Assembly: GCF_964355755.1 (NCBI RefSeq)
Contig: NC_092670.1
Location: forward strand, 2,284,201 to 2,348,200
Length of the DNA: 64,000 nt
Direction of reading: 5' to 3'
From: Antedon mediterranea
Lineage: Eukaryota > Animalia > Echinodermata
The notes beneath the pieces are model-generated. The model searched no databases. It was given only the letters and a program-made list of their open reading frames with translations, and was not told where the DNA came from. Below are positions 1,919 to 63,972 of this stretch, piece by piece. Each line of letters starts with the position of its first letter. Within the stretch, counting starts at the first letter, position 1. Made by a program: the position numbers and the translations under genes.

Positions 1919-2122
1919 CCTCATCCATTTTGCTTTCTTCTGTTTTAGTTGATTGTGCTGGATTTTCTTTTGACTGTTCTTCTATTCTGTCTTCTTTCAC
2001 ATGCTTCATGGGAGCATTTTCATAATTGCCAGAAGCCTGTTTTGTAGATGCTGTTGTATTTTGTTTTCCTTTCACTTGTTTCACCACTTCTCTAGCAATT
2101 GCTTTCTCATACATATTAGACG
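1919..2122 (-). CDS. Roco A low-complexity ROC insertion exon
   Basis: SNMYEKAIAREVVKQVKGKQNTTAS...KMDE; in phase with the previous exon; paralog of 62685-62948. Confidence 0.75.
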
Positions 2123-5100
2123 CTTTAAAAAAATTGTACAGTAGTTTGTTTTTGTATATTATTGTTGTTGTGTTTGTACACTATGAATATGTTAATTATT
2201 TATTAAAATGTTAAAAAGGAAGAAACACACATTTAATTGATTCATTTGCTGTGCCAGCTCAGGAGTCGCAAAAACAGGAAACCTGAAGGACGTGTGGCTC
2301 CCTACAACAAACCAACAAATGCAATATAGTACAAAGCTTTCAAAACAAAACATACATCACACACATTTGAATAATAAATATAACCATGATGAATAAATCC
2401 AGTTCTGTGTTATAAATAAATAATTTAGGTAAAAAGAAGCAAGTTATCAATTTATTTCAAATTTGTTTGAATTGAAGTAGTAATCAAGAAATTGTATGTA
2501 AAACAAATTATATAAATAACACCCATAAAACAAGACAATACAACTACATAATAAGATTAAATAAATAAATATTAAACAAGAATCATACATTGTCTCTAAA
2601 ACAACACAGGATTTAACATGGGATTTTTAAAGCAATAAAAGAGAACAAAAATTACTATTTAATCACGGTGGATTGATTTGAATATTAGCCACTTGTATGA
2701 ACTAATTTTCAAAGTTTTCAAGGGCCTTATCTATGTTATGTTCTACGATTGTCATCCAGTTTTATTTTATTAAATTATTTTTATTTATTTAAGTTTGTCT
2801 CCAAACTTATTTTGGCCTCCTTCTGCACTCTCGTATTTTTCTACTCTTGTAATTTTGTTCCTTAGTTGTAAATTGTAAATGTGTGTGAAGAAAAGCAGTT
2901 ATTAGATTTAGTTTAAAATTTAGTTTCATCAAAGTTGTTGTAGTTTTTACTTGTTTTATCTATGGTTATTAACATTTTCCTTTTGTTTACCATTACAGTA
3001 TAAATAATAGAATAATCACTGATTATGCAATACACCGGCCTGGCTTACCCTTTTCTGTACTTGTGACATATATATGAAGGTTAATGTATTTTTTTAAATC
3101 TTGTAAAATCAGTTATTATATTTTATAAATAATGAATTTACTGAAGCCAGAGAAATATGGGTTTGTCACAAAAGAAATATTTGCATACTTGTGTCAATAA
3201 ATGTTGGTTGGTTTTGAAAAACAATTTTTTTAACATCTATGGAACCATTATTTCACGCATCTTAAGATGATACTTACATGTGTCTCGTATTTCTTTCAAT
3301 GTTGTTTCATCGACATCATCTTGAGTGCACACCGTTGTTGCTATAGCGTCAGTTATGTCATGCTTTGGATTAAAACTATAAAAGAAATGTTGATTAAATT
3401 AAATATCGAATGTCAAAAATGACAAGAAAAAATGCCTTCTTGGTAGAGAATACTGTATTTGTTTATACTACGTCATATTATATTAGTTAAGTCGACAAAA
3501 TATGCTTTTTTTGTAGAAAAGGCAAAATTAAATTAAATAGGTATTTATGAATTCTTGGTATCAATGTCGTGGTCCGAACAAATAAAGAGGAGAAAACACT
3601 TGGTTTCTTTCCTTCAGTGCGATTTTATTAGTTTCGTCAAATCATTACATAGGCATAAGTCATTTCAGGTACAAGAATTCGAGATTTAAGATATAAGATT
3701 CAAACCCTCAAGTTATCAACACCAACGTATGTATGACACAGCATCAACTCGTGATAACAAGATAACAACTCCTGATTATTATACTTCCGACTGAGCAAAA
3801 AAAATAAGAACATATCAATAGCTTAAACAAACTCTCAACCAAAACTGTAGTAACATAGCGAGAGCCAACAAAACGAACAAAAGACCCGCTCTGCTTACGC
3901 ACGGTCTTTTATCACACAGTGTCACCTGTAGGCCCTATTCCAATTACAGAATGACTACGCAGCGCCCTCAATACTCAATTCATCACATCTTCCCCGCCCG
4001 GAAGTACTTTTGCCCCCAAAAGTAAAGTTTCAATAAAAAAAAATGCAATATCCATATTTATTTGTTTAGAACAGAAATTGGAAGTCTATGAGGATTACTA
4101 TTAATACCCTTAGTGGAACGGGTTGACCTTCTCGGAGGAGAACGGACACTTTGTGTAATCCCACAATGAAATCTAATGTCCTCTAAATCATCCGAATCAT
4201 CAGAGTCACTTAATACTTCGGATTGAAATGGTAGGCCCAAGGAATCATCTACTAACGAATGACCAACTGGATACAATGTATCTTCTCCATTGGATGGGTC
4301 TAGAACAAGTTTCCGTCTATTCACATACTTAAGTTCACCACCCCTTACTGGCCGAATACCAAACACATCATCTGTAGAATTAATTGACTCAATTATATAA
4401 GAAAAATCATGAAATTTATCAACAAGTTTATGACGTGAATTAAAGGATTCCCTCCTAAGCAATACACAATCACCGATTTTAAGACACTCAACAGGCATCT
4501 TAACAACATGCCTCTTTTCTTCACGAATTGCTGCAGCCTTCAATCTGGACAATGTTATCTCATAAGCTCTTTTCATCAATTTTGTTTCTTTTTGCAAATA
4601 TTCCTCCGACCAATCATTATCCAAATTTCCAATCAGACTATCAATAGGAATAGATGGCTCTCGACAAAACATCAATAGATACGGAGCGACACCTGTAACA
4701 CAATGTGGTGTAGAATTATAGATATAAACAATGTGATTAATTAACTCAGGCCATCTTCTACGTTCTTTAGGATCCAGAGATCGTAACAATCCACATAAAG
4801 ACTTATTAAATCGTTCACATTGTCCGTTTCCAGAAGGGTAATAACTAGTAGTACGAGATTTGCTAATGCCATATAACTTACATATCTCACGAATTACGTT
4901 GTTCTCAAATGATTTACCCTGATCAGAATGTAACCGATCAGGAACACCATAATGTACAAACCACGAATCCCTTAACACATTAGCAACAGTGATTGCTGTT
5001 TGATTTTTACATGGAACAGCCAAAGAAAATTTACAAAAAACATCGGTCATAACCAGAACATCTTCGTAACACCCCTTACCCCGATCTAATTTTAAGAAAT

Positions 5101-8100
5101 CCAAAGCCAAAATCTCCTGAGGACGGAAAGCCAGTAAGTGTCGAAGTGGTGGTTTAACAGTAGGAGAGGGTAATTTGCTACGCACACAACGACCACAGCG
5201 AGAAATGTAAAGTCTTACTTCATTATTCATCCCCGGCCAATAACAACGCCGTCTTAACAAGGACAAAGTTCGATAAACCCCCTGATGCGCCCACTTATCA
5301 TGACAAAGCTCAATTAAAGTTGAACGCAAATTACGTGGAACTAGTAATTGTCTGAATGAAATAACAATAGGATCTTTTACTTGCCGATACAAAACACCAT
5401 TAAATTCAACATAATTGGACCACTCACGCAACCAACCAGATACACACTCCGCTTCTGGACGCCCATCCTTTTCCCTACACCATCCAGCCTTCCATAGTTT
5501 CCAAACTTCACCTAGCTCATCATCTTTCTGCTGCATATCTGTAAGTTGCTGAAATGTATAACTTGGTAAAACAGAAGGAATAGACTTAGTTTCCAGAAGG
5601 GACTTTGCCATTGAAACTGAATTATCTGAATTTTGGATATCAACAATAGCAGTACGAACATGTACCAACAAGCAACAAGCAACAGCCGCCAATGCTTCTT
5701 TATTTACACTCTCTTCTTCGAACGGATATCTGCTTAAAGCATCCGCACACTTATTGTTTGAACCCGGTTTATACTTTATTTCTATGTTAAACATTGCAAG
5801 CTGAGCAACCCACCTTAACTCAGTCGCTCCTAACTTAGCAGTTTGCAAATATGCTAAAGGATTGTTATCCGTGTAAACTATAGCTTTAGTACTCTGAATG
5901 TAAGAACCAAATTTATCAACAACGGCCCATTTTAAACCCAATAATTCCAATTTGAAACTAGATAGTCCAGCATAGCTTTTCTCTGATCCACGTAACCCAC
6001 GACTTGCATACGCAATAGGATGAAGAATCTGGTTATCGTCCCGCTGAGACAAACATGCCCCTATCCCATTACCACTAGAATCCACCTCAATAATGAACTC
6101 TCTATCAAAAATAGGATAAGCTAACACAGGTGGAGTCACTAAACTTTTCTTAAGACTTTCAAATGCAATTTGTTGTGGTAAACCCCAATGAAATGTACTT
6201 ATTTTGTCTTTACCGACTCCAGCACGACCATTCCCCGCCCGAGATGCTGCCATATGGGTAATATTATGGAGCGGCGATGCAATCTTAGCGAAATTCGGGA
6301 CGAACCTCCGATAATACGAGGCAAGTCCAAGGAAGGACTTAACCTCAGTAACATTTTTTGGAACAGGCCACGAAACGACTTTATCAGTCTTACCTACATC
6401 AACAGAAACACCTTTACTCGAAATGACATGACCCAGATAAGCGACTTCTTCCCTAAACAAATCACATTTTCTTCCTTTCACCTTTAACCCATACCTCGCT
6501 AACCTACTAAACACCTTATCTAGTCTATTCAAATGTTCATCAAACGTAGCTGAAAAGATAAGAATATCATCAAGATATAAAACAACTTCAGAGAGATTCA
6601 AGTCACCCAGTACATACTCCATTACGCGTTGGAACGTGCTTGGACTGTTCGTAAGACCCTGTGGCATCCGCAAAAACTCGTACAATCCCCACGGCACCCG
6701 GAACGCTGTTTTACCAATAGAATCATCAGCCATGATTATTTGAAAAAACCCATGTGCCAAATCAAGGGTTGAAAACCAACGAGAACCGGTTAAAACGTCA
6801 AGTACCTCATCAATTCTAGGTAAGGGAAATGAGTCTTTCATAGTACGCCCATTCAATTTGCGATAATCTATGCACAAACGCAAAGAATTATCCTTTTTCT
6901 GAACCAAAACGATGGGACTGGCGTAATCACTTTTTGAAGGCCTAATAATACCCTGATTTAGCATTTCTTGTAGCATTGCTTTAACTTCTTTAATATTATT
7001 AGGATGGACTCTACGATATGGCAATCTAATAGGTACATTGTTACTAATTAATGAAATTGAGTGAGGTATCACATCGCACTTCCCAACATCATAGGGACCT
7101 GTAGAGAAAACATGTTTGTAATTATTTAACAGCAACAAAACTTTGCGCTCCTTATCTCTAGGTAAGCCTTTCAATAGTAAACCCGGAGGACAGACCAACT
7201 CAGATTCTGCAACAATGCTACGTTTATGAAACGGATAATTACCATCAACCAGCTCAGAGCCGTTGGAACACACATTATCCGGTGGCAATACACTTGAACA
7301 CACATTGACTTCATGTAACTTATCACAAGCCACTGGAACAGCTGTATTAAAGTGCTTTAAAGAAACAAAAATTTGGGATTGCTCATTATTAACTCTCAAG
7401 ACTACCTCAGCCCTACCAGTACAAGGCGAAGCTGTTTTCGCACCAACTACCTTACCCAAGGTTTCCAGAATTCTCGGATCATCTTGAATATAACGTAAAA
7501 TATTACATCCTGTCAAAATTGGATAAGAAACATTGTTATTACATGCACTATCAGAAACAATGAGAAAACTACCCAACAAATTGTGCCCTAATATTTCAAT
7601 TGGAACTTCAACATAGCCCTCAATCGGAACTTCAACACCACAGACGCCAATCACATTGGTAAATAACTTGTCTGCACTGTGTAAACCACCCAGCTCAGAT
7701 TTTAGAATTCTGTGATAAATTGAAGAAGGAATGATAGATGCTTCCGCTCCTGTGTCAAGAACTGAACCCAATTCAACTGAACCAAACTTTATAACAGCAC
7801 AAGGGCTTTGGGCAACTAAACGGCTAAGCAAAGAGGATTCCGAGGGCTCTCGTAAATCATTAGGGGGAATAATTTTATCTTCCACAGAAACAACCGGGAT
7901 TTGAACAGAACCTAGATTATGATTATCTGTAGATGGTTCGGGCTTTGACTTCCTAACTCTACTTGGACATTTTGCAGCAAAGTGGCCGACCTTTTTACAT
8001 TCCCAGCAGAGACCTGGAGGCATTTCACAATTATCTCTATTATGACCAAATTGTCCACAATTAAAACAACGACGGGGCCCACTTCTATTAAAAGAATTAT

Positions 8101-11100
8101 TAGTAGTATTTTGGGAAAACTTACATAAACTCTGTTGAAGTTGATCTAGCTGTTGTTTAAGAACCTTTAACTCCTTTTTAATTTCACAATTTTCAGATTG
8201 GTTTGAATAAGAATTTGTTGGAAAATCTACACCCTGAACTTTCGGTCTATAACCCCGTGATGTCTCGCCTTTAAACAATTCAAGAACTTCCTCCCTCATT
8301 TCCATAAAGGATTTACCCCTAGGCGCCAATTCAATTCTGCGCATTTCACGCCTAACGAGTGGATCCCGTACCCCTTCTACCAATCTCTGTTTGAGTGTGG
8401 AGTCCTGTAAATGTTTGAGAGCATTCTGTTCATTGGGGAAAGAAGCTTCCAATAATCGCGAATAAATTTTCATTAACTCTAAACTATATTCGGCCACACT
8501 TTCATAATCCAACTGATTACGAGAATAAAACAAAGTATTTAAAGCCGATACAGATTCATCTGGAGAAAAGGTAGTCTGTAACACTTGAATGGCCTTTTTA
8601 ACATTTTTGCCTTTACCCAATATGGACATTTGGTAATGTACTTCGTCTTTAGCCGATCCCCCCAAGTGACTTACTAGGGCATCATATTTTACGTCCCCAC
8701 CTAGATTATAATGTGTACAATATGTCTCAAAATCTTCGAGCCATTCCCGCAACGTGACATCCCCAGGGGATTTTGGACGACCCCTAAATTTAGCCAACTT
8801 AATAGGAGGAGGAACTTTTTGAACACCCACACCTCTCAACACATCAGTAAGCGCAGCAATCATACTATTAATTCCTGTGGTCTCAGTATCGGGTTTCTCA
8901 GCTTTCGCCATATTAATATACACAGATGATATAACGAGTTTAAATCGAGAATATACGAACAACGATCATTCATAAACTAAACTATAAGGTACTATATAAA
9001 CAATTGATCACAGATAACATATCAACAATATATTTTAACAGATCCACACTTTTCAATGATTATAATTCCAAGCAAGAGTATTGTATGTCACACATGTCAC
9101 ACCAATTATTAGAATTATCAATTTAAATTATATGGTCAACTTCCCAAATGTTAAATTATAATCAACACATTCATAAGTATCAAAATTATAATCAACACAT
9201 TCATATATAAGTATCAATGTTCTTATCTTCTTATCTCCATTCATAACTTGAGAGCCTAGATTCCGGTAACTGGTCCTCTTCGATCTTGATGCTTGGTACC
9301 CTGCTCGCAGCGCCAAGTTTGTCGTGGTCCGAACAAATAAAGAGGAGAAAACACTTGGTTTCTTTCCTTCAGTGCGATTTTATTAGTTTCGTCAAATCAT
9401 TACATAGGCATAAGTCATTTCAGGTACAAGAATTCGAGATTTAAGATATAAGATTCAAACCCTCAAGTTATCAACACCAACGTATGTATGACACAGCATC
9501 AACTCGTGATAACAAGATAACAACTCCTGATTATTATACTTCCGACTGAGCAAAAAAAATAAGAACATATCAATAGCTTAAACAAACTCTCAACCAAAAC
9601 TGTAGTAACATAGCGAGAGCCAACAAAACGAACAAAAGACCCGCTCTGCTTACGCACGGTCTTTTATCACACAGTGTCACCTGTATTCCAATTACAGAAT
9701 GACTACGCAGCGCCCTCAATACTCAATTCATCACATCAATGTCTGATGACTTAATGTGTTTTACACCCTTTCGTCAATCAATTTCACACTTCAGAAAAAT
9801 GTTTGTATAGGAAATGTGGTAAAATGCGACGGTAATGAAATGGTATTTTTATATTTTCAGTGTTTGTAATGTTCACAATTCAGTTCATTAGTGGAAAAAA
9901 CTCTGGTTTTCAGATGGAGGCACACACATATTTAAGTGACATGATCCTTTATTTTTCTGGCAGCTATTGAAGATGTTAAGTTGTTTATAATTTTGTAAAG
10001 TGTATCTTACATATAATGTAAATAATAATTAACCTTTAAACAATATTTTAACATGAAACTAAAAGAAAGTGCAAATACTTTTTTTGAGAAGTGTATTTTA
10101 TTGTTACTTTATTTGAAAATCACTTTTAATTGTAATTGTATGTGTTTGCTATCTTTTAATTTGATTTGACAGTTTTAATAGATTTGCTTACCCTTTCCTT
10201 AGCAAAGCATTGATAGTAGAAGTTTTTCCCACTCCTTCAAGACCTACAAAAATAACTCTGCCCTGTTTAACTTCAGTTTCTCCTTCTTCCAGAGCTTCAT
10301 TGTATGCTCTTATTGCTTCTGGTCCTCGAGCCTGTATCTCCACCGGAGTTAAATCTTGAAAACAAAAGTAATAAAGTTAGTACACAATCAATGTAATTTA
10401 CCAAAAACATAAGGGGGTAGTTGTCCTAAGGGGGTAGTTGTCTGGGTGGTAAACATCCGGGGGGTAACTGTTTAGGGGGTAGGTGTCCTAGAACAAATTT
10501 TTGTAATGTAGTTTCTCAATATGTGTTGGGTATTCATTTCCCCATACAATTAGTTAATAGACAAGTTTAAAGTTATACCTGTTAAAAATGTCTGACATGA
10601 TTGTTTAGAATTGTATAAGTAGTCAACAAGATCCCATGAATAAATACTAGGTTAATATTTGTTTTTTACCTTCTGGTCGACGTTTGGAAGCAAATGCTAC
10701 GCATTTGTCATCGTCACTCTCAATATTTCCTTAAAAAATAAAAAAAAACCTTGATAATATTTTTGAATGTTTACACAATTGACAAATAATTAATTGAGAT
10801 GGTTTGAAAATTAAAATTAAATAATAATAGTTTTCTATGATGTACAATTTGTTGAAGAAGATCGTAAAATACATCTTTTTTTCTTATAAACGTTGGAATA
10901 GATATTTGGTAAATAAAATCAAAATGTTTTAACATTCATATAAATATCGGTTCACATTTACCTTCTGGTCGTCTGTTAGATCCTGATGATTTACTATCGT
11001 CATATTCATCTTTCCTACGTTCTAGAAAATGTTTTAAATGTTTAAAAACAAATTATAATATAAATACATACGGGTAAAACTGCTTTTAAAATACTACATT

Positions 11101-14100
11101 ATAAATATTATGTTATAATATATTTATTTTCAAAATTAATGTAACAAACTGTTAGTTGTGATGGTTTGAAGATTATAATTTATAAAGTAATAATAAAAAA
11201 ATTAAATATCACATGTTTTATACCTTTGTGACTTCCACTGCGTTGTGGTACATTATCATGATGTACAATTTGTCGAAGAAGATCAGAAAATACATCTTTC
11301 TTGTCTGGTTCTTTCGATAAAAGTTGTCCAGTTTCCAATCTGAATGTTACATCCCAAATGTTGGTGTAGTTATACCTTGCCAGATCATAGTGAGCAATAA
11401 CCCTCTTTAACGCATCTGGATCAACATTTCGCAGCTTTTTAAACATATATTTTCGACGGAGTGATATCTTTTCTTCTGTATTTTTAGCGTTATCATTTCT
11501 AATATACTGGACTACAAGATCTTCAGCCTTCTTTAATTCACATAATTTGGTAATCTCCAATAAAAGACTAACATTATTAGGTGTAATTTTACCAGTGGCA
11601 TGTAATTCATTAAAAAAATCATTTCCTATGACATTCAGTTTTGTGAGGTCTTCTATATGTAGATGCTCGAATAAGCAGAATTTTAACCATAGCAACCGGT
11701 CACCGTCGAAGTGTCTACCAAGATCAAACTTCAAATTGGTGAACTTTTGATTAGTTTCAAACTTCAAACATCCGGGGGGTAACTGTCTAGGGGGTAGGTG
11801 TCCTAGAAGAAATTTTTGTAATGTAGTTTCTCAATATGTGTTGGGTATTCATTTCCCCATACAATTAGTTAATAGACAAGTTTAAAGTTATACCTGTTAA
11901 AAATGTCTGACATGATTGTTTAGAATTGTATAAGTAGTCAACAAGATCCCATGAATAAATACTAGGTTAATATTTGTTTTTTACCTTCTGGTCGACGTTT
12001 GGAAGCAAATGCTACGCATTTGTCATCGTCACTCTCAATATTTCCTTAAAAAATAAAAAAAAACCTTGATAATATTTTTGAATGTTTACACAATTGACAA
12101 ATAATTAATTGAGATGGTTTGAAAATTAAAATTAAATAATAATAGTTTTCTATGATGTACAATTTGTCGAAGAAGATCGTAAAATACATCTTTTTTTCTT
12201 ATAAACGTTGGAATAGATATTTGGTAAATAAAATCAAAATGTTTTAACATTCATATAAATATCGGTTCACATTTACCTTCTGGTCGTCTGTTAGATCCTG
12301 ATGATTTACTATCGTCATATTCATCTTTCCTACGTTCTAGAAAATGTTTTAAATGTTTAAAAACAAATTATAATATAAATACATACGGGTAAAACTGCTT
12401 TTAAAATACTACATTATAAATATTATGTTATAATATATTTATTTTCAAAATTAATGTAACAAACTGTTAGTTGTGATGGTTTGAAGATTATAATTTATAA
12501 AGTAATAATAAAAAAATTAAATATCACATGTTTTATACCTTTGTGACTTCCACTGCGTTGTGGTACATTATCATGATGTACAATTTGTCGAAGAAGATCA
12601 TCAAATACATCTTTCTTGTCTGGTTCTTTCGATAAAAGTTGTCCAGTTTCCAATCTGAATGTTACATCCCAAATGTTGGTGTAGTTATACCTTGCCAGAT
12701 CATAGTGAGCAATAACCCTCTTTAACGCATCTGGATCAACATTTCGCAGCTTTTTAAACATATATTTTCGACGGGGTGATATCTTTTCTTCTGTATTTTT
12801 AGCGTTATCATTTCTAATATACTGGACTACAAGATCTTCAGCCTTCTTTAATTCACATAATTTGGTAATCTCCAATAAAAGACTAACATTATTAGGTGTA
12901 ATTTTACCAGTGGCATGTAATTCATTAAAAAAATCATTTCCTATGACATTCAGTTTTGTGAGGTCTTCTATATGTAGATGCTCGAATAAGCAGAATTTTA
13001 ACCATAGCAACCGGTCACCGTCGAAGTGTCTACCAAGATCAAACTTCAAATTGGTGAACTTTTGATTAGTTTCAAACTTCAAACATCCGGGGGGTAACTG
13101 TCTAGGGGGTAGGTGTCCTAGAAGAAATTTTTGTAATGTAGTTTCTCAATATGTGTTGGGTATTCATTTCCCCATACAATTAGTTAATAGACAAGTTTAA
13201 AGTTATACCTGTTAAAAATGTCTGACATGATTGTTTAGAATTGTATAAGTAGTCAACAAGATCCCATGAATAAATACTAGGTTAATATTTGTTTTTTACC
13301 TTCTGGTCGACGTTTGGAAGCAAATGCTACGCATTTGTCATCGTCACTCTCAATATTTCCTTAAAAAATAAAAAAAAACCTTGATAATATTTTTGAATGT
13401 TTACACAATTGACAAATAATTAATTGAGATGGTTTGAAAATTAAAATTAAATAATAATAGTTTTCTATGATGTACAATTTGTCGAAGAAGATCGTAAAAT
13501 ACATCTTTTTTTCTTATAAACGTTGGAATAGATATTTGGTAAATAAAATCAAAATGTTTTAACATTCATATAAATATCGGTTCACATTTACCTTCTGGTC
13601 GTCTGTTAGATCCTGATGATTTACTATCGTCATATTCATCTTTCCTACGTTCTAGAAAATGTTTTAAATGTTTAAAAACAAATTATAATATAAATACATA
13701 CGGGTAAAACTGCTTTTAAAATACTACATTATAAATATTATGTTATAATATATTTATTTTCAAAATTAATGTAACAAACTGTTAGTTGTGATGGTTTGAA
13801 GATTATAATTTATAAAGTAATAATAAAAAAATTAAATATCACATGTTTTATACCTTTGTGACTTCCACTGCGTTGTGGTACATTATCATGATGTACAATT
13901 TGTCGAAGAAGATCATCAAATACATCTTTCTTGTCTGGTTCTTTCGATAAAAGTTGTCCAGTTTCCAATCTGAATGTTACATCCCAAATGTTGGTGTAGT
14001 TATACCTTGCCAGATCATAGTGAGCAATAACCCTCTTTAACGCATCTGGATCAACATTTCGCAGCTTTTTAAACATATATTTTCGACGGGGTGATATCTT

Positions 14101-23226: not shown

Positions 23227-23352
23227 ATTCGTGAAGTTGGTTCCTTATTCGACGTTCGCTAGGCCGCGGCCGACCGGCTGGCCCAAATTCGTACCAAAGT
23301 AGACCTAGTGTAGATGTACCTATTTTATCACAGATTTACATTTTTTAGTTCC

Positions 23353-25870: not shown

Positions 25871-25880
25871 CACTTTAAAG

Positions 25881-39635: not shown

Positions 39636-39642
39636 TCATATC

Positions 39643-52900: not shown

Positions 52901-55900
52901 GACTGTGCCTGGTGGTCCACATCTAACAACAGGTGAAAGTATTGTTTCAAGAGAATCTGATAACAAATCACTAGGGAATGAGGTATTTTCTAGTGAGACT
53001 TTAACATTCTTTCCTTCTTCAATTGCTCCAGGATTTATCACCAACTTTGTGTCTTTATCCTTAAGATAGAGAGTTTCGCCTTTGGAGTCCACAATTAACT
53101 CCACAATTTGGTCTGTGGAATCAAAATGCTTTATAAATTTAATATATGTTGTAATTATATGTGGTTTATTAATATAATAATAACACTAACACTAACAATA
53201 ATAATAATAATAATAATAATAATAATTGCCATGTATTTTTTTTTGTGTGCTGTCTTCTGTTCTATGATTTAGATGTTAAAATCTCTTAAAGGTGAAGCTT
53301 TAAAATTAGCACAGTACATTACGGAATAATTGTTAAGCAAATACACAAACATGGTAATTACACTTTTGTTATATAATTATAATTATTTTTCTTTTTCCTC
53401 ATCACCTGGTATATAATTAAAAATGTTTGTGTTTAACTCATAGTATCGCTAAAATATTTTGGCATTGAAAAGTCCATATTAATATGCACTCTAAAAGAAT
53501 AGCTTACAATACCTGGCTCTGATGCAAAAAAATGTAAACGGTTTTCGTTGTTTTTCAGTTGATTTATGGGAAGAACCTATTAAAAAATAAAATATGAACT
53601 ATAATACTAAACAAATTTTATTATCCTTAATATACTACATTTTGGAAAGCTGTCTATGAAGGTCCTTCTTCTAATTTCAGTTTCATAAATTATCAATTTG
53701 ATATGTTTGTAAAACTAAAAAAAGGAGTATGCACATATCAAAATTGGGATAGTTTCTCACAATATTTTTTAAAAGATGCTTTCACCTTCATTTTTAACAA
53801 ATCAACAAAAAATATGTAAAACAATTATTAACTTTAAAAAACTTTAAAATAATGTTATTTCAATTATAGGAATCATGCGTTATTCTATAAGTAAGGTATA
53901 CCTGCTAGTTGTATTTCATATCTTTTTTCAACAATATCTTTCTGAAACATATCAGCAAGATTGTTACTGCCATGTTGAATTAGTGCAATGCAAAATACTT
54001 CAAGTTGATTCCATTGGATATCAATATTGGTTCTCCAAAAATTCATCATTTCTTTGGTAGATGTAATTAGCTCACTTCCAAACTTTGTCACCGTTAATGA
54101 GCTAAGACCCAGATGAACACCAAACAATTTCCAGTTATGAATTTCTTCAGATACTTTTCTAATAATTTGATCATCCACGTACCCTATGATAGAAAAATTA
54201 GCTTTGACTTTGAATTATTGGCTATTCCTAAGTAAATTAACTTTTAAAATTTGCAATCCTTAGATTTTTAATGCCATAAAAAACCTACTAAATCTTACCT
54301 TCGTTATGAGATCGTGATGGTATAGCTATAAAAATAAATAAATAGATATAAATTTGTCAATCAGTATACATCTTTATAATATTACTAAAAACAATCTCAA
54401 AAACTGTATTCCAAATTTTTTTTAAATTCAACACTATTGGACCATACCAAACTAAAACTACTTACTTTCATCTTGAGATTTTAAAGTTTCTGTAACAGTA
54501 AATATATGTAAATTAATCAATAATGCAGGGTGAATCCAGTAACGTAAAGGATACTGGTACTAGAGGGTGTAATGTGGTCTGATTCCTGTAAAAGTTGGCT
54601 TGTGAGAGATCGGTCACCATTGCATAGAATGGAACACCAACTTTTCTGCGTAGAATAGACCTACTGTAGAACCGTTTTTTATTTGACTTGCAGGCCAGTT
54701 AGACAGCCTTTTTTTCCCCATTTCGAGTGGGGTTTGTCTGAAACAACTCAGATCCACCACTGATAATGTCAACACATTGTACTATGGGATACTGCAAAAT
54801 ATCAAAATATATGTGTATAACTTTAAATGCCTTGCCTTTTGGTAGCACAGCTTCCCCAAACAATTTACGGTAAAGTTTAACTTCCATTTGATTGCTTCCA
54901 CAAGGCAACACATCCTGGTCAAACTTGCGAATAAGATGCATATGAGCATTTTGAATGTTTGGACTAGATGCACACGGGATGTACATCCTTACTTCAAGAC
55001 CTCGGGCATCCTTCTGACTGAATACTTTTAACTCTTTTTGAAGGAAATGAAGAACCTAAAAAAATCCATGTATATTACTGCAGTATGTAGAAATAACACA
55101 TTAAAAAAATAAAATTTGTTATGCTAATTATTTTGGCAATTTTTTTTAAAATTCTGAACAGAAGTACTTATCACTGTCATATATTTAACTTTATTTATAA
55201 CAATCATACGAAAGCCCATTAATGCCATTTTAAGTATATGTTTTTCGAACGTAATCCGTTTTAACGAATTAGTAATTCGTTTGAACGGATTAATAATCTG
55301 TTCAAACGAATTAGTAATCCGTTCAAACGAATTGCAACATATACAACAAGTGCCATTTAAAGTATATGTTGTAATTCGTTTGAACGGATTACTAATCCGT
55401 TCAAACAAATTACTAATTTGTTCAAACGGATTACTAATTCGTTCAAACGAATTACTAATTTGTTTAAACGGATTAGTAATCCGTTCTAACGAATTACTAA
55501 TTCGTTTAACGAATTACTAATTCGTTTAAACAAATTAATAATTTGTTTAAACGGATTACTAATCTGTTTGAACAAATTAGTAATTCGTTTGAACGAATTA
55601 GTAATCCGTTTAAACAAATTATTAATTTGTTTAAACAAATTACTAATCCGTTTAAACGGATTCCTAATTCGTTTTAACAGATTATTAATCTGTTTAAACA
55701 AATTAGTAATTCGTTTGAACAGATTAGTAATCCGTTCAAACGAATTACAACATATTCTTTAAATGGCACTTGTTGTATATGTTGCAATTGGTTTGAACAG
55801 ATTACTAATTCGTTTGAACAGATTACTAATCCCTTCAAACGAATTACTAATTTGTTTAAACAGAGTATTAATCTGTTCAAACGAATTAGGAATCCGTCCA

Positions 55901-58900
55901 AACGGATTAGTAATTTGTTTAAACGGATTACTAATCTGTTTAAACGAATTAGTAATCCGTTTAAACAAATTATTAATTTGTTTAAACAAATTAATAATTT
56001 GTTTAAACAGATTACTAATTCGTTCAAACGGATTACTAATTCGTTCAAACGAATTACTAATTCGTTCAAACAGATTATTAATCCGTTTAAACAAATTATT
56101 AATTCGTTTAAACAAATTAGTAATCCGTTTAAACAAATTAGTAATCCGTTTAAACAAATTATTAATTTGTTTAAACAAATTACTAATTTGTTTAAACAGA
56201 TTACTAATTCGTTCAAACGAATTACTAATTCGTTAGAACGGATTACTAATCAGTTTAAACAAATTATTAATTCGTTTAAACAAATTAGTAATCCGTTTAA
56301 ACAAATTAGTAATTCGTTTGAACGAATTAGTAACTCGTTTGAACAAATTAGTAATCCGTTTAAACAAATTAGTAATTCGTTTGAACGGATTAGTAATCCG
56401 TTTAAACGAATTACAACTTATACTTTAAATGGCACTTGTTGTATATGTTGCAATTCGTTTGAACGGATTACTAATTCGTTTGAACAGATTATTAATCCGT
56501 TCAAACGAATTACTAATTCGTTAGAACGGATTACTAATCAGTTTAAACAAATTATTAATTCGTTTAAACAAATTAGTAATCCGTTTAAACAAATTAGTAA
56601 TTCGTTTGAACGAATTAGTAACTCGTTTGAACAAATTAGTAATCCGTTTAAACAAATTAGTAATTCGTTTGAACGGATTAGTAATCCGTTTAAACGAATT
56701 ACAACTTATACTTTAAATGGCACTTGTTGTATATGTTGCAATTCGTTTGAACGGATTACTAATTCGTTTGAACAGATTATTAATCCGTTCAAACGAATTA
56801 CTAATTCGTTAGAACGGATTACGTTCGAAAAACATATACTTAAAATGGCATTAATGGGCTTTCGTACAATCATAATAATTTTCCTTTACTGTGAGTATGT
56901 ACCCTAAGAGTCCCTTTGTGTTGTGCCAAACGGTACTCGTTTGTCTGTCCACAATGACAGTGTCTGACTTGTACACCAGGGTGGGGTAACCCCCTACTCT
57001 TCTGAAAGATGAACAGGGTTATTTATATTACTTGGATCTCCAGTTATAAGTCCTTATCCACAAAGACTTGTTCTCCCACCAGCACTATAGTTGAGGAGTG
57101 CATTGAATTTGTTGATTTTATGGCTGTGGTTTAATTGTTCCTGTATTATCACTTTCATATCTACTAGCCTACCTTCTTACAGACTTCAGGTAGTGGCTTA
57201 ATGTCGTCTTCTAGAGAACTATCAGCCTTGATGCTCTTTGTTCTGACTATTGTTGTCTGCAATATAAAATAATGAACCTTGTAGTTTGACACATTGTAAA
57301 TGGTAGTCTGTCTTGTATTTTTTTTAATGGATTGATGCTTGTTATTTCATTTGTCGGAGGTAAATAAATTTAACAGATTATAGCAATCCATACAACAGAC
57401 ATGGTCTTGATATATTATATTGTACAGATATATTTAAAATGTTTATGGGGTGAACATAGCCAAGGCAAACCTTTCATTTTTGTTTTTAATGTAGAAAATA
57501 TGTGATTAAAATTGTTTTAATGAAAGTTATTGGTTATTTTTGCTGTAGAATACTAAATTATAGGGATTAAAATTTAAACACTGATGACATGGCACTGGGC
57601 CCTTTAATTCAGCTTTTGCTACTATATATCAAGTATAAATTTTAAAAATTTACCTGTAACATACGGCAATGTTTGATGGTAGCTACATATAGAATGACCA
57701 GATGTTCAGCATCAATATTCAATTCTACATGCTCATACGATAGGCGAGGTTCAACATCTTCCATTTGAAATTTCTCAATGAATTTGGTTGCAGCACGTTG
57801 AAAGAGATCATCTGGAAGATAGCTACCAAAATCATGAAAAAGTGAAATTGCACGCTTGTCTTCAAATTGAGGCTGTGGTGGGGGTTCTGGTTTAAGACGC
57901 GAGAGAACGTAGAAAATGTGTTCATCCTTCTATAAAATGAAAAAGAATATATCTTATAGATTGATAGTTTTGTAAAGAAGATGAATTTAATACTTGAATG
58001 CATTCCTGGTTTCAATATCAATACCTTTTTACTAGCACACATTAAACCAAACTTTTCCATGAGAGACACAAAGAAGTTAAAAGTCTCATCAGAATCACAA
58101 AACTCTTTCCACAGATATCTCAACAAACCAACTTCTAAAATGCCAGTGTCCAGTCTTTGCCAAGCTTTCCACATTACTGGCTCCTATTAAAAAATAAATA
58201 AATATCAGTGTAGTTTTCAGTTAGTCAAATTATTTAGGAATATTTAATAAGGACATAAGTAAGAAGATGTTTTAGTAACTCTGAATATAATTAGGATATT
58301 GAGAATATTGATTCTTGTATTACTGTATACCTGTATATTTCATTTTACAGTTAGAATATACAGTATAAAAAATTTCACAAAATTGTTATTGTAATGATTG
58401 TACACTGTACCTATTTCCTAATAAGTATATTTTTTTTTATATTTTCATAAAAATTGTTTAAAAATAAAAATCTTACTTTTCGCTTTTTAGCATGATGCAT
58501 ACTGAATTTATATATATAGATACTAGAATAAGAATACATATTGGAGAGAGCAGTGTCAAAATATTTATTTGCTAACCATATTTTCAGGCTCTTTAACAGT
58601 AATGAATGTTTTTGACATGTCAACTAGTTTCATCAAATCTATAACTATTATATCTCTTAGTGCCTCATCATCTGGGTAGTAGAGAATCTCGCCAATGTCA
58701 TGTAAATACTCAAGCAGGAATCGCTGATTTTCTGTATCTTCACAGTCTTTTAGTAAAATGTGTACCTGTAAGAAAATAGTTTCATAATAAACATTTACAA
58801 TCTGAAATAACTCTAATGATTTTAATACCTTATTTTCATCATTTTTGTAATTAATTTCTGGATTGCATTTCACTAAATGTTCATGGAATTGTCATGATTC

Positions 58901-61900
58901 ATCTATTATACAGTATAAGCACTTATTAAATGTATAATATCATCAGTATATGACGATGCAACATTACAGTCAAGTCTATCCAAATACAGATCAAAATGGC
59001 AGTTAATTTTTTTTTAAAGCCAAGTAATATGAATTGTTTATAAAATACTTTGTTTTCCATATGGCAGTGATCATTTATAAAAATAATAATATTTGAATTT
59101 ACAGATGCATTTATTGCTTTTTTGCTTTTCAGTGTGTACCAATTTCTATATTATTATTACATCAGCATATTTTTAAAACGATTATTTTCCTGCTTGTATT
59201 TCACCTTAGAAACTTGTAAATAGATGTGCTCTTTTTTCAAGCTTTGGATTTCCTGCTGTCCTCGCAGCCATTTTATTGGCAAAGTGCGGATCATTTTCTT
59301 GGAAAATTCCAGTATATGTTTCATTATGACAGAAGCATTGCTCTGTGCAAATGGTACACTGTTTTCAATGGTAAAGATAGTTGAACACACCATAGCCGCA
59401 TATGGTTTGTCTTTTAGGGCTTGCCATATTCTTTCCTTTATCTTTGCAAGCTGTAATAAAGTGAATTATATATATCAGAGTGTATGATAAACCTTAACAG
59501 ATTGATTATCTAACATTTACTATTTCAAAATATAAAAATAAGGCTGTAAAAAGTTTAGTAAAACATTTACGGTGAACATTCTTTTTATCACCAGAACCAA
59601 TTCTTTAGGACTTTGTAATATAGATTCATTTTACCTTGCATTTCTTTTCTTCTTCAGTTCCTATAAGGCCATTTAAATGTGTACCTATCAGTAATACAGG
59701 AGGACAAGGCTGACCATTTATCTTTGCATCAGGTCTGCTGTTTGTGTATATGGAACGAATCCAAGAAAGAATAAACTCCAGATTTGTCATTCGATGTGGA
59801 TATGTTTGACCCTAAAAAATACAATAGCATCTCAATCTCTTGCCAAAGACTCAAGTTATTCATTGGTCAACTATTCTAATGTAGTAATACAGTTTTTTTA
59901 GTTTAATCTGCGAATAAACTTTTACCACATATCTTTGACAATCACACATTTGAAGCTTAGAAGCAAGTTCACCAGACGTGTCCAAGAGAGGTATTCAAAC
60001 ATTTTTCAAGAAATGAAATTAATAAAATAGTTTGTTTTATGAATTATATCATTGAGAATTCTTCTTAAAAGCTAATAGTATAAATACAGTATTGTGACCA
60101 AATTATAATTTAAAACAAACTTATTATGATGCTGCTTACAGATGTTGGATCCAAAACCTTAGCTGGGGCATCAAGATCATCACAAAGGTTGAATACTACA
60201 CAAATAACAGCAAAAGATACCATAAAGATCTGGGAGATCAATAAAACAGTGGCATTCAATGAATGGTGAATATTATACAGATTTTGACTGCTTAGAGGTT
60301 AAATATAAGATTTGACATCCCCGAGGGAATGATATTTTGTTCGAGGGAATATTTATAATTCCCGAAGCGCTAGCTGAGAGAAATATATCATTCATAATAA
60401 TCATTCCCTCGGGGTTGTCAAATCTTATATTTTACCGATATAAAAGGCGATATTTGTTATTACATAGCCAACAACAAGTTGAATATCTACTGCTGGGTCG
60501 GGTGTAGCTAGGCCTCCTTTGTAATAAGCCTGCCTAATTAGGCGTTGCATTCACCTTACCTTGCAAAGAATAATATACAGATAATTACTAATTAATGTTC
60601 CTTGGCAATAATATATTCATTAGGCCTAGGTCGTTTAAATTAACAGAAGAATTTCCATCAAAAAGCCTACATTAATAATAATAATATTATTATCAGGTAG
60701 GCAGAATAAATTATAATTCGTGTTGTTCGAGGAGCCAAATCACCGGATGTTCAGCGCGCCGCGCGTACCAGGTTACTACCGTGAGTATTAACCAATCACA
60801 AACGGTCTTTCATCACATCTAGGGAGGACTAATAACAAATGAGGGCGCTAATGTATGCATAGTTTAAATAGTTTAGTTGATTAATTTCTTCAAGCAAGTT
60901 GTGTGGCGCAACGGAAAAAACGTTGTCTTTTGATGATGTGACAAATCATGGTGAGTTCAAGTCCCAAGATGACTTTTGTTTATTTATCGCCAAACGCGAG
61001 TGTTGCCACACGAAAATTACACAGTCAATATCATCGTACTCGAGAATTTGCTGGATTTTATATGTTTAATGACAGAGACACGATAATTATGCGAAAATTA
61101 CTCAGTCAATATCATCGTGCTCGAGGATATATACGATTTATGATCCTCGCAGCGGTAGTCATGTGATGCAGTTTCAACCAATCATGTTCACGTATTTACA
61201 TAGGCTATGTAATATAAAAAAATATCTTTATTATCAATGAAATTTAAATTTTGAATTGTTAATGTAGTTTTTTTGTTTCAGTAGTTTTAATTTTTAGATT
61301 TAAGAATGTTGCGTCTATACTACTACTAAATTTATTACAGATTTGTGATAGAGATATTTGACCAATATAAAAATTATTACTTATTATTTTTTTAGTGTTG
61401 GCCTTTCCTAACTTTGTTTGTCTTATATTACAGGAGGAAGACCTGTGCAAGTAGAGCTAACCTGTTTCTCACAGAAATATGTGTTGGGAATATATGTGGA
61501 TAAACTAACTCCATGCTGGTATGACTTTCTGTCAGAATATGTCATGCAGGCATTGGGTAGAATAGTTGGTATATACCATACTTAATATTCCTGGCTGATT
61601 GATAGCTATATGCTGGTAACAATGCCAGCATCAATTCCAGCATTTTGTCTCCACTTTAGGTAATAAAATGTAACCACTTTACCCGCTGCATCACATGATA
61701 AATTGGTTGTCCTCCAAAATCTGAGATGTTCATCACAAACTTGTTGCTTGTCGTCTTGTCATCATTTCCTTCTTTCTGAAACTCAATTTCTATTAATTCT
61801 TCAATTTTTGAAGGAATCTTTGTCTGGTCATCACTTTCTTCTTTCTCAATCTTTGTCTGGTCTTCACTTCCTTCTTTCTGAAACTCAATCTGTATTAATT

Positions 61901-63972
61901 CTTCAATTTTTGAAGGAATCTTTGTCTGGTCATTACTTTCTTCTTTTTCAATCTCTATCTTTGAGGGAATCTTTGGCTGAAGGTTTTCTTGCTCTATATT
62001 TAAAAATGTTAAAAAATTGTACTAAATTCATTAAAATAAATTCATTAATTGACAAATAAAATATCCAATATTATGTTTCTGTATGTAATATATTATTTGA
62101 AGGTTTGCATGGCAAAATCAAATGTTGTTATAAAGTTTGCAGTACACCATGTATATTTAGTTCTGAAAGAACTGTTGGGTTTCTGTACATTTCGATCAGT
62201 ATACTTTGAGTGACATTCACTTCTGAGGACGATAAAAGTATATTGATCGAAACATTGAGAAACCCAACAGTTCTTTTCAGAACTATATATATGTGGTGTA
62301 CTGCAAACTTTCTGTATGTAATTTTTATAGGCCTTTTATTAAGATAATTTATTATAGGATTCTAATTATTTTATCAATGGTAATTAAAATTAATTAAGAA
62401 AAGTACATTGTCAGACAATTTAATTTTTAGAAATGAAAGTGGAAAAGGATCTACAGAATATCAACGTTTCCGATGATTTCAGGTCCTGAATTTGCTTCCC
62501 TAATGATTCTACGCGGCTTTTCCTTTCTTGATTGACAAGAAGAGTTGTGATAGTGACTTTTCAATTGCCATATATCTTGAAAGAAAACCTTATCAATTAG
62601 TAAGAGGAGAATTTGGCACATGCCTCTTAAGATTTTCCTATTTCATTGAGTTTGTTTTGAGCGCAAAGCAACATTTTTGATTACCCTCATCCATTTTGCT
62701 TTCTTTTGTTTTAGTTGATTGTGCTGGATTTTCCTTTGACTGTTCTTCTATTTTGTTTTCTTCCACATATTTCGTGGGAGCATTTTCATTGCCAAAAGCC
62801 TTTTTTACTGATGCTGTTGCACCTTCTTCTTGTATCATACTATTCTTGTTATCAGAAGCATTTTCTGTTGATGCTGCTGTTGTATTTTGTTTTTCTTTCA
62901 CTTGTTTCACCACTTCTCTGGCAACTGCTTCCTCATACATTTCAGAAGCTTCAGCATAAAAGAAGTGTAATTTGCTTTTGTATATTATTGTCATGCTTGT
63001 ATATATACACAGTATTATTTTAAGAATGTTACTATCTTTTTTAAATAGGATAAGAATGGAAAAGTCTGGGACAAGGTCTTTGCACTCAAACGCAGGATTG
63101 GCTAGCATGAATAGCTAAAGCAAAAACAAAAACAACCAATCCTGTGCCTCTCTCTCTTTGGTGCTAATTTGGTTACCAATTTTGTATTTTGCATTCTTTT
63201 TTATTCTCATGTTACTTACAAGTTTCTGGTGATTGTTCTTTCAAAATTGTTTCATTATCACCTTGAGTGTACACTGTTCTTGTTTCTGCTATACCATCAG
63301 TTACTTCATGGTTTGGATTAAAACTACAGAAAAAATTAATAAACTAAATAATGGCCATACAGTATTTTTTGTTTTATTGTTTTATTATCATTGTCTGCCT
63401 ATATTTTAACGATTAAATGTAGTGCCCCAATGCAACCAATTGGTTGCAATGGCATTTATGTCATTAGTAAATTCCCTTAAATCCGTAATAATAAAAATGG
63501 CTAAACTGAGAGGAAATTATGTTTTTAAATATGCATTTAAAAATGCATATTGAATCTAAAATTTACACAGATATATACCCCGGGATTGAAGATAGAGTTT
63601 CAACTCAAAACAATCTCATTATACTTTTCATCTCATTTTCTGTAGATTGTTTTAAACAACATTCAAATCAAATAAAAAATAACATTTATTTCCAAAATAG
63701 TGGCATCACCAATAAAGCAAATGCTTGTGTCAGGGCTGCCAATACAAAACAGACAAAAACAAACAAAATATATAAATCACATTTAAATAAATAAATGTCA
63801 AGGTTTTCTTACCGTTTCCTTAGTAAAGAGTTAATAGTAGAAGTTTTTCCTACTCCCTCTAGACCTACAAAAATAACTCTGCCCTGTTTAACTTCAGTTT
63901 TTCCTTCTTTCAGAGCTTCATTAAATGCATTAACTGCTTCTGGTCCTCGAGCCCATATCTCCACAGGTAAGT
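49623..63972 (-). CDS. Roco gene B: ROC-COR-death domain-ZU5-UPA-like; 5' end lies beyond the right edge, 3' end uncertain
   Basis: Phase-consistent exon chain: 63972-63813, 63323-63220, 62948-62685, 61993-61683, 60229-60140, 59811-59635, 59450-59205, 58765-58577, 58183-58025, 57929-57654, 57256-57173, 55055-54836, 54489-54466, 54325-54299, 54183-53902, 53576-53508/53513, 53112-52577, 52065-51934, 49943-?. Confidence 0.85.
50850..51740. mobile_element. DNA-transposon end fragment with a ~300-bp tandem duplication (TGACCTT-rich, resembles the ends at 37.4 and 42.6 kb)
   Basis: Repeated TACGACCAGTA...GGGTCAAAGGTCAGAAATGGCATTTC blocks at about 50990 and 51295. Confidence 0.5.
51934..52065 (-). 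CDS. Roco B probable UPA-like exon
   Basis: CTTTCAG acceptor, CAG|GTATGA donor, 44 open codons in phase 0. Confidence 0.6.
52577..53112 (-). CDS. Roco B ZU5 domain and start of a UPA-like domain
   Basis: VDSKGETL...LVINPGAI...LSPVVRCGPPGTVF...LSFPH...KHFSKYGL...LRVR. Confidence 0.88.
53902..54183 (-). CDS. Roco B death domain exon
   Basis: IRKVSEEIHNWKLFGVHLGLS...EMMNFWR...FCIALIQHGSNNLAD fits the death-domain pattern; phase 1-1. Confidence 0.82.
54836..58765 (-). CDS. Roco B COR exons (58765-58577, 58183-58025, 57929-57654, 57256-57173, 55055-54836)
   Basis: LLEYLHDIGEILYY...VID; GIL...LW...LMEKFGL; FYVLSRL...YLPDDLFQR: COR-A/COR-B patterns. Confidence 0.85.
55207..56866. mobile_element. 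Non-autonomous TIR element with 21-bp internal repeats, IS3EU-like
   Basis: TIR of more than 50 bp TACGAAAGCCCATTAATGCC... with TAC...GTA termini; 6-bp TSD CAATCA at 55201-55206 and 56867-56872; intronic. Confidence 0.85.
56900..57100 (-). mobile_element. Degenerate SINE fragment with a Nin-domain-like core
   Basis: Minus strand GGATAAGGAC...AACCC...GAAGAGTAGGGG...CCC.GGTG resembles the conserved core of invertebrate SINEs (from memory). Confidence 0.4.
59205..60229 (-). CDS. Roco B ROC C-terminal exons (60229-60140, 59811-59635, 59450-59205)
   Basis: IFMVSFAVICVVFNL; TNLEFILSWIRSI...PPVLLIGTHLN; FTIENS...LPIKWL. Exon lengths 90, 177 and 246 bp, all phase 0. Confidence 0.88.
60292..61215. 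mobile_element. Intronic non-autonomous element with asymmetric inverted repeats (Crypton-like)
   Basis: 5' hairpin AAATATAAGATTTGACA.CCCCGAGGGAATG...CATTCCCTCGGGG.TGTCAAATCTTATATTT, plus ATTACATAGCC (about 60460) and GGCTATGTAAT (about 61203); no TSD. Confidence 0.45.
61683..61993 (-). CDS. Roco B acidic repeat plus G3 exon
   Basis: (KIPSKIEELI.IEFQKEG.DDQT)-type repeats, then FVMNISDFGGQPIYHVMQR. Confidence 0.88.
62132..62311. repeat. ~180-bp imperfect palindrome, possibly Penelope-derived
   Basis: AAAGTTTGCAGTACACCA...TGGTGTACTGCAAACTTT arms with CTGAGGA...CGAAAC inside. Confidence 0.6.
62685..62948 (-). CDS. Roco B low-complexity ROC insertion exon
   Basis: SEMYEEAVAREVVKQVKEKQNTTAAS...KMDE; phase 1-1. 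Confidence 0.78.
63220..63323 (-). CDS. Roco B switch I exon
   Basis: FNPNHEVTDGIAETRTVYTQ... carries the T-x-G-I G2 motif; canonical splice sites. Confidence 0.82.
63813..63972 (-). CDS. Roco B P-loop exon
   Basis: DLPVEIWARGPEAVNAFNEALKEGKTEVKQGRVIFVGLEGVGKTSTINSLLRKR. Confidence 0.9.

Follow-up and report, generated by a model that had tools for sequence, protein, structure and literature searches.

Two predicted Roco GTPase genes of the crinoid Antedon mediterranea with death-signalling modules, some closely matching pieces of NLR genes

Expansions of Roco proteins that lack a kinase and carry death folds are already known. Trichoplax adhaerens is described as having an expanded set of Rocos that carry CARD and death domains but no kinase (Civiero et al. 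2014, PMC4104024), Roc-COR proteins with TIR or death domains are reported from Aplysia and sea anemones (PMC9334734, PMC5094078), and expansions of NLRs with death-fold effectors are presented as general in invertebrates (PMC3879445). Rocos are described as low-affinity GTPases with a monomer-dimer cycle that runs through COR (PMC6337361), and death folds as signalling by filament clustering, with recruitment of caspases and kinases (PMC8195603). Here we analyse a 64,000-nucleotide stretch of AT-rich DNA of the crinoid Antedon mediterranea (contig NC_092670.1, positions 2,284,201 to 2,348,200; hereafter the window), whose minus strand carries two genes, A and B. Judged from their sequences, both encode Roco GTPases joined to death-signalling modules, and parts of NLR genes are close matches to some of these modules; the crinoid Roco family to which they belong is likely to consist of cell-death or immune scaffolds that change fast and are partly decaying. 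Three features are surprising, all of them drawn from automatic gene models: an apparent exchange of parts between NLRs and Rocos, a haplotype with eight predicted death effector domains (DEDs) and a ZU5 domain with an HF/S motif. Our literature search found no report of crinoid Rocos, tandem-DED Rocos, Roco-ZU5 fusions or NLR-Roco chimeras, which supplementary domain tables and Roco surveys could nonetheless list.

The closest described systems each share a part of this pattern. The Trichoplax Rocos are given TPR, LRR, AAA or Ras-like domains, and tandem DED, ZU5-UPA and NLR-derived pieces are not among the domains named in that account (PMC4104024). Brown-algal LRR-ROCOs are likewise expanded, clustered, pseudogene-rich, kinase-less and exon-duplicating, with an immune role that is described as only proposed (Teng et al. 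2024, PMC11378527); in that account, however, it is LRR sensor exons that are shuffled, whereas the crinoid Rocos swap death-fold effector ends and have no LRR array. With DAPK1, LRRK2, MFHAS1 and neuralized-PATS1 the crinoid proteins share the ROC-COR tandem, and with DAPK1 and neuralized-PATS1 also a death domain (DD) after COR, but they have no kinase, LRR, neuralized or TIR domain and form many recent copies rather than one conserved gene. The amphioxus protein Hypp5498 (P0018) has the order DED-OTU-Roc-COR-DD in one chain, but with a single DED plus an OTU domain, and it stands on a separate long branch in the ROC-COR tree. Invertebrate NLRs are described as having lineage-specific tandem expansion and death-fold effectors (PMC3879445), and the tandem-DED cassette of gene A is common to it and an Antedon NACHT protein; the crinoid Rocos differ from NLRs in having a ROC-COR GTPase switch, not a NACHT ATPase, and no LRR sensor.

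Gene B occupies 63972 down to 51934, and gene A extends from 15730 past base 1 of the window; about 36 kb of repeats, including a DIRS-type element, separate them. A preliminary description of this DNA had proposed two head-to-tail paralogues between 1919, where the linker exon of gene A has its donor, and 63972, where the acceptor of the gene B P-loop exon lies. This was borne out, as the two genes form a minus-strand pair whose exon paths match the public models P0001 (gene A) and P0025 (gene B). In P0025 ROC is directly followed by COR, with Roc at E 3.4e-10 and COR-A at E 1e-12, both above the Pfam cut-offs; P0001 gave Roc at E 6e-11 but ends after the first COR exon. The claim that neither gene shows a kinase or LRR also held, since the Pfam scan found no NACHT, NB-ARC, LRR or protein kinase family in P0001 or P0025. 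Nor was a protein kinase found in P0037, a paralogue discussed below, or in the crinoid paralogues scanned, and the neuralized and TIR domains of P0015-P0017 are absent from the crinoid rows.

Within the window gene A has 15 exons, which together form a stop-free reading frame of 1076 aa, identical to the beginning of P0001. The first coding exon (15169-15730, minus strand), with its ATG at 15715 and an in-frame TAA just upstream, equals the start of this Antedon mediterranea model at 100% identity. Pfam recognises DED only weakly, in the first half of the exon (E 2.6e-4), and the sequence gave nothing significant against solved structures. A structure model of this tandem DED (tDED), built with an alignment of 34 sequences (pLDDT 91.9), matched the tDED of caspase-8 with Z 14.2 in structure comparison (root-mean-square deviation 2.9, 150 residues aligned); the caspase-8 tDED was also its best Foldseek match (E 3e-3), and FADD, vFLIP, MC159 and cFLIP were further structural matches. 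A weak match to TcpF was set aside as chance. By its predicted fold, the first exon of gene A is two packed DEDs, in agreement with the DED-DED that had been read from the letters alone.

What the preliminary description had overlooked is that the DED cassette stands four times in gene A. The array (10451-15708, minus strand) repeats a 1315-bp unit made of the tDED exon and two 60-nt phase-1 linker exons. Copies 2, 3 and 4 of the tDED exon lie at 13854-14432, 12539-13117 (in a unit identical to that of copy 2) and 11224-11802. Linker mini-exon 1 lies at 14907-14966 in copy 1 and at 13592-13651, 12277-12336 and 10962-11021 in the others, and mini-exon 2 at 14615-14674 and at 13300-13359, 11985-12044 and 10670-10729. 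Copies 2-4 have no native acceptor and use an AG within a short inserted repeat (motif at 14433, 13118, 11803 and 10488). All cassette boundaries are in phase 1, and therefore the product would have eight in-frame DEDs. An assembly artefact is unlikely to lie behind the array, given that copies 1, 2/3 and 4 differ at 6-13 sites and have one new junction in common; none of the contigs listed crosses this junction.

The units repeat with a period of 1315 at more than 99% identity. Units 2 and 3 are identical, and unit 1 differs at 11 sites, all within the DED exon (binomial p 6e-5, a value to be read knowing that a single allele exchange would account for all 11 differences). Over 15169-15708 compared with 11224-11763, units 1 and 2 differ at these 11 sites of the DED exon and at none in 775 bp of intron and linker, and three letters private to unit 1 recur in a contig of read run X9. 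The DED exon may thus be more polymorphic than its introns. The comparison of dN/dS per domain, which had been suggested beforehand, gave 0.67 for the DED copies (3 silent and 8 replacement changes), a value that does not show positive selection, and 0.29 for the P-loop exon of gene A against that of gene B (9 silent and 9 replacement changes in 51 codons).

We looked for the array in four read runs, compared over 9745-11900. Runs X1 and X2 come from one sample (S1), and X9, from another study, is guessed to be RNA. At several sites in the flank, X1 and X2 depart from the window letters at full depth, and S1 is therefore taken to be another individual. An X1 contig over 10496-11024 passes into other letters exactly at the start of the inserted repeat, and a 542-letter contig of X2 matches 11393-11763 and then runs into letters unlike the array junction. 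Contig depth over the unit was 1045-1297 against 1068 in the flank for X1, and 136-224 against 179 for X2, a weak measure that does not give copy number. Sample S1 seems to carry one cassette, and the fourfold array is probably a recent, haplotype-specific gain. As a counterpoint to a single copy in S1, one X1 contig ends exactly at 11763, as a branch to the junction would too. Spliced contigs of close paralogues were present in runs X8 and X9, and the X9 joints 11021/11224 and 10728/10961, with CT..AC ends, are both introns inside the cassette.

Downstream of the array, gene A continues with the ROC P-loop exon (10192-10354, phase-1 acceptor), the switch-I exon (3278-3375) and a low-complexity insert exon within ROC (1919-2122), all on the minus strand, and runs on past the window start. 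There, P0001 proceeds through G3 and G4 into the first COR exon, and its final residues match read-through of a gene B intron; COR is thus incomplete in the public model, and in this assembly gene A may have a broken COR. Read-through from the UPA exon of gene B into the DED exon of gene A was ruled out by the in-frame TAA just before the gene A ATG.

The relatives of the gene A tDED point to NLRs. A full-library search gave 65 proteins, 63 of which were scanned with Pfam (two with short repeated-stretch matches only were omitted). Eight of these carried NACHT, five Roc or COR, three a kinase and two NHL with RING or B-box, and a caspase domain, a very large GTPase, ZU5-UPA alone and TPRs were found once each; most of the remainder had only DED or nothing. 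All ten relatives checked for species were crinoid, nine of them from Antedon. In a FastTree of 81 rows, the gene A tDED groups with those of the NLR P0002 and the fragment P0040 (support 99), and the tDEDs of gene A's own Roco clade form a separate subfamily. Moreover, gene A and P0002 share 85% identity over the 52-aa linker, and the DED cassette is 72% identical to the effector end of an NLR. The simplest reading of these sequences is that a Roco captured the first three exons of an NLR. The same tDED subfamily (P0038-P0099) also sits in crinoids on kinases with MAM domains, on a ubiquitin protein and on several Roco clades. Two near-identical tandem DEDs stand before ROC in P0097, and in P0003 the N-terminal tandem DED is 85% identical to the C-terminal one.

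A search with the ROC region of gene A gave 22 proteins, of which 6 from A. mediterranea and 7 from Anneissia japonica matched at E<=1e-60; the 9 other ROC matches, led by neuralized-PATS1-type Rocos (23-26%), were at 22-30% identity. The close paralogues are 49-96% identical in the ROC region, and cluster look-ups found further copies on two Antedon chromosomes. In a quick ROC-COR tree of 29 rows, for which there is a long-branch warning and from which P0001, P0037, P0024, P0028 and P0097 were excluded (incomplete core or isoform), 17 crinoid rows fall in a single clade (SH-aLRT 100), within which the 9 sequences from Antedon (86) and the 8 from Anneissia (98) separate. The proposed expansion by duplication was thus confirmed: 13 of the 22 matches are crinoid at E<=1e-60, and the copies form clades by species. 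The family is a multi-copy, species-specific crinoid expansion and not the conserved low-copy orthologue that had been named as the alternative. The quick tree does not settle the sister Roco group, and descent from neuralized-PATS1 is unproven.

Around the common core the members differ at both ends. The front ends comprise tandem DED, TAZ-KIX (P0006), ankyrin and NLR pieces, and the rear ends one to 12 DDs (12 in P0014), tandem DED or ZU5-UPA-tandem DED; phase-1 boundaries flank the DED cassette and the exons for the P-loop, the DD and ZU5. In three close members, ROC is preceded by an NLR piece that differs from one member to the next. Among them, residues 7-104 of P0026 are 72% identical to the post-NACHT region of P0088 (592-688). 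The first 50 aa of P0025 are encoded beyond the window; of these, the initial 35 share 78% identity with the 36 C-terminal residues of the same NACHT protein P0088, the Antedon NLR P0057 gave a weaker match (41%), and no DED was found in this N-terminus. Since P0025 starts with an NLR-like tail piece, the N-terminus of gene B differs from that of gene A, and an N-terminal death-fold effector is present in gene A only and absent from the gene B model.

Of the GTPase motifs, G1 to G3 are intact in both genes (GLEGVGKTS; TDAI in the gene A switch-I exon, TDAI/TDGI over the pair; DFGGQ). G4 reads GTHLN in genes A and B; its usual Asp is missing there, in the other crinoid rows examined and in two hemichordate rows. 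Variation of the G4-G5 motifs in Rocos is noted in a published account (PMC6337361). The distance from G1 to G3 ranges from 161 to 229 aa among crinoid members. Exon by exon, gene A is a mosaic that resembles P0003 in exons 2-3 and gene B in exon 7: its exon 2 and insert are 96% and 95% identical to P0003 against 66% and 80% to gene B, and its exon 7 is 95% identical to gene B against 81% to P0003.

Gene B has 17 exons in the window, which give 908 aa that equal the end of P0025. On the minus strand, the ROC P-loop exon (63813-63972, phase-1 acceptor) is followed by ROC exons with switch I, the insert and G3 as ISDFGGQ (63220-63323, 62685-62948, 61683-61993), then by those with G4 and the passage into COR (60140-60229, 59635-59811 with GTHLN, 59205-59450), and by the COR exons 58577-58765, 58025-58183, 57654-57929, 57173-57256 and 54836-55055, the last with a GC donor at 54835. 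Two phase-1 micro-exons (54466-54489, 54299-54325), the death-domain exon (53902-54183, phase 1-1; weak in Pfam, E 0.014) and a 64-nt linker exon (53513-53576) lead to the ZU5 exon with the start of UPA (52577-53112; ZU5 in Pfam at E 8e-16) and to a UPA exon (51934-52065), the last part of gene B in the window that matches P0037. An X9 contig loses its match at 54836, the edge of the last COR exon. A frameshift in that exon, with a stop near 54700, was considered and rejected, as P0004 and P0025 use the GC donor 54835 and an X1 contig is gap-free there. Inside the ROC insert exon lies a 102-bp in-frame tandem duplication (61753-61954). A COR intron contains a 21-bp minisatellite (55251-56822); an X1 contig skips 55063-56866, and the insertion seems to be absent in the X1 sample or in a paralogue.

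The reading frame changes at the 64-nt exon, where a run of 7 T (53526-53532) shifts it relative to P0004 and P0037, both of which read the exon in the other frame (FFASEP). Skipping the exon would keep the gene B frame. Over 53235-53545, an X1 contig lacks one base relative to the window, at an unplaced position in a stretch with five homopolymer runs; this fits an in-frame gene B allele. In this assembly, gene B likely makes a ROC-COR-DD protein without a tail. Of the architecture first proposed for gene B, ROC-COR-death domain-ZU5-UPA-like, the ROC-COR-DD part therefore stood, and the remainder did not, with ZU5 out of frame on the modelled path and UPA cut short. A composite DED-DED-ROC-COR-DD-ZU5-UPA shared by both genes was not upheld, as P0025 has a C-terminal piece of an NLR at its start and a frameshift ahead of ZU5. 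For gene A, P0001 ends in COR, and the composite is possible only as the split models P0001 and P0037.

P0037 is an in-frame COR-DD-ZU5-UPA-tandem DED with one ZU5 and no LRR. It begins inside COR, has no overlap with P0001 and is 91-100% identical to gene B, and we consider it reasonably probable that it is the missing 3' half of gene A. The gene B ZU5 exon aligns to the ZU5 of UNC5B and onward into UPA (E 5e-9, the best solved match). The Phe of its HFS motif (52715-52723) falls on residue 137 of the 3g5b chain, in which Cys 123 and 130 correspond to Cys663 and Cys670, and residue 137 is therefore UNC5B Leu677, described as the equivalent of the scissile Phe296 of CARD8 (D'Osualdo et al. 2011, PMC3210808); PIDD1 cleaves at HF/S. 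UNC5B itself has Leu-Gly at the position of Phe-Ser in the gene B ZU5, and two other Antedon ZU5 proteins have HFC at the HFS position. HF/S, ZU5 and UPA keep the reading frame in P0037 alone, unless the 64-nt exon of gene B is skipped. We predict from the motif that ZU5 would autocleave at HF/S in intact members. In the Atlas, the best feature match of the P0037 tail was a ZU5-UPA-Death cluster (0.93, 163 shared), FIIND clusters came next, and the nearest models were UNC5 clusters. P0037 thus resembles PIDD1, NLRP1 and CARD8 in its ZU5-UPA followed by a death fold and in HF/S at the position given for CARD8 Phe296/Ser297 (PMC3210808), but ROC-COR-DD precedes a single ZU5 in place of LRR or NACHT-LRR and the C-terminal fold is a tandem DED; the LRR-ZU5-ZU5-UPA-DD order of PIDD1 is not that of P0037. 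The analogy with NLR and PIDD platforms drawn in the preliminary description is strengthened by the NLR-like pieces before ROC in three members and by HF/S at the PIDD/CARD8 cleavage position; the label of receptor is unproven, as no sensor domain was found.

The interpretation that we favour, with moderate confidence, is that genes A and B are kinase-less crinoid Rocos with exchangeable death-fold modules that act as nucleotide-switched cell-death or immune scaffolds, with rapid gain and loss of copies likely. By analogy with other Rocos, ROC-COR would cycle between monomer and dimer with GTP and GDP and so cluster the attached death folds. Clustered tandem DEDs could then seed a filament and draw in partners from the same species whose DEDs belong to the same subfamily; candidates are the caspase P0090 and the kinases P0065, P0070 and P0071. 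In members with an intact tail such as P0037, HF/S autocleavage would free a UPA-tandem-DED fragment, as in NLRP1, CARD8 and PIDD1. We would expect partners or the variable N-terminal module, rather than an LRR sensor, to convey the trigger. The gene A cassette may have come from an NLR-type gene via phase-1 exon shuffling, and a recent unequal crossover may have given the four copies on this haplotype.

Several observations weigh against this interpretation. The role of the family in death or immune signalling is a proposed one, and the Pfam scan found no sensor domain in P0001 or P0025. Both genes show decay: in gene B the frame is lost on the path from DD through the 64-nt exon to ZU5, and P0025 terminates after 17 codons of the ZU5 exon, Ser replaces the usual Trp before G3, and below 51934 there is no match at E<=0.1 to P0037 residues 494-963 (the remaining UPA and the C-terminal tandem DED), so that its tail is cut short in any case; P0001 ends inside COR. 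With a G4 that has no Asp, specificity for guanine is uncertain. In gene B and P0026, the NLR pieces are fragments that come only from automatic gene models and could be joins of neighbouring genes, and the NLR-to-Roco direction of transfer rests on parsimony, not on a rooted test. The tDED of the caspase P0090 is only 28% identical to that of gene A and stands on a long branch; a complex prediction of the gene A tDED with the P0090 prodomain (score 0.28, mark 0.34) is not used as evidence. Finally, the splice from DED exon to P-loop exon assumed at the outset has canonical sites, keeps the phase and is part of the public model, yet the read joints listed include none between mini-exon 2 and the P-loop exon, and the X9 spliced contigs, 94-98% identical, could derive from an NLR that shares the cassette. 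No RNA dataset was listed on record for gene B.

We give a minor but real chance to a different explanation: both loci would be mostly decaying by-products of segmental duplication in a region rich in NLRs and transposons, with a ROC-COR cassette lying in or behind NLRs by chance, the pieces joined by gene prediction and the array a neutral or harmful private variant, even if the family functions elsewhere. The gene B frameshift before ZU5 and the missing tail fit it, as do the stop of P0001 and the start of P0037 inside COR, the long terminal repeat (LTR) element in a gene A intron and the DIRS-type element between the genes, the apparently single copy of the array in S1 and the lack of a cassette-to-P-loop joint among those listed. 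It is opposed by the open 908-codon path of gene B, with ROC-COR-DD and canonical splice sites, and the open 1076-codon path of gene A, by the dN/dS of 0.29 in the P-loop exon and by the X8 and X9 spliced contigs of close paralogues; the one-base-shorter X1 contig over 53235-53545 also fits an in-frame allele, its gap being unplaced. Improbable, in our judgement, is that gene A works as a decoy like cFLIP or vFLIP, its NLR-type DEDs capping or absorbing the filaments of NLRs and caspases, the GTPase localising or timing the brake and copy number tuning its strength. Its tDED model does match cFLIP, vFLIP and MC159 (Z 10-12) besides caspase-8 (Z 13-14), but a fold match cannot give the sign of an effect. 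The cassette's 72% identity to an NLR effector end and the many tDED matches of 150-420 aa with DED as sole domain agree with a decoy, and so does a gene A model without most of COR, which other Rocos are described as needing to dimerise (PMC6337361); a probable in-frame 3' half nevertheless exists in P0037, and eight DEDs per chain would more simply lower the barrier to filament formation.

We regard as very improbable a role of the family in non-immune cell death or trafficking, for example in arm autotomy, regeneration or metamorphosis, in the manner of DAPK1 or of the dependence receptor UNC5. UNC5B is the best solved ZU5 match, UNC5 clusters are nearest to the P0037 tail and DAPK1 is described as a ROC-COR-DD protein (PMC6337361), but UNC5B has Leu-Gly against Phe-Ser in the gene B ZU5, and species-specific expansion, mosaicism, pseudogenisation and parts shared with NLRs typify immune families rather than conserved genes of development. 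Returning to nucleotide-switched scaffolds, a bolder version of that interpretation is rather doubtful and is offered tentatively: crinoid NLRs and Rocos would exchange parts such that ROC-COR replaces NACHT behind the same tDED, a 'Roco inflammasome'; HF/S self-cleavage would free a UPA-tandem-DED seed; and haplotypes with four cassettes would carry a pre-built filament seed, with copy number setting the death threshold.

The function of ROC-COR is not settled even in LRRK2 and DAPK1. A natural series of close paralogues in which one core carries different death-fold outputs, and in which the effector cassette of an NLR is attached to a Roco, would offer a simple read-out, as filament, caspase activity or death, of ROC-COR as a general clustering device switched by nucleotide. 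If the scaffold reading is true, a GTPase branch would be added to the NLR/PIDD death-fold platforms in a deuterostome group that is unstudied; if the loci are debris, they would be a clear case of birth-and-death evolution and of the pitfalls of annotation in clusters.

The remainder of the window is largely repetitive. At 1-840 on the plus strand, just ahead of the expected next exon of gene A, a 240-codon frame without a Pfam match precedes an A-rich tail and resembles what we take to be the 3' end of a LINE. The LTR retrotransposon in the gene A intron (3565-9737, minus strand, Gypsy-type domain order) is intact and recent; it has LTRs that are 98.4% alike and an open frame of 1635 codons (4058-8965) with zinc knuckle, reverse transcriptase, RNase H and integrase. 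A retroelement in pieces at 31013-36429 (minus strand), with matches to reverse transcriptase, adenine methyltransferase and tyrosine recombinase, is presumably of DIRS type by this set of domains, and has inverted ends near 36358-36511 and 37121-37272. Inverted repeats of about 1.2 kb, made of 73-83-bp subrepeats, surround decayed coding fragments at 37388-41666 (one fragment without a Pfam match); this is probably an old DNA transposon. A fold-back-like element occupies 20929-29802: its inverted repeats (21152-21343/28743-28934 and 20929-21016/29715-29802) enclose about 5 kb of a 181-190-bp satellite, arranged as two arrays of opposite orientation (23371-25870 and 25874-28608).

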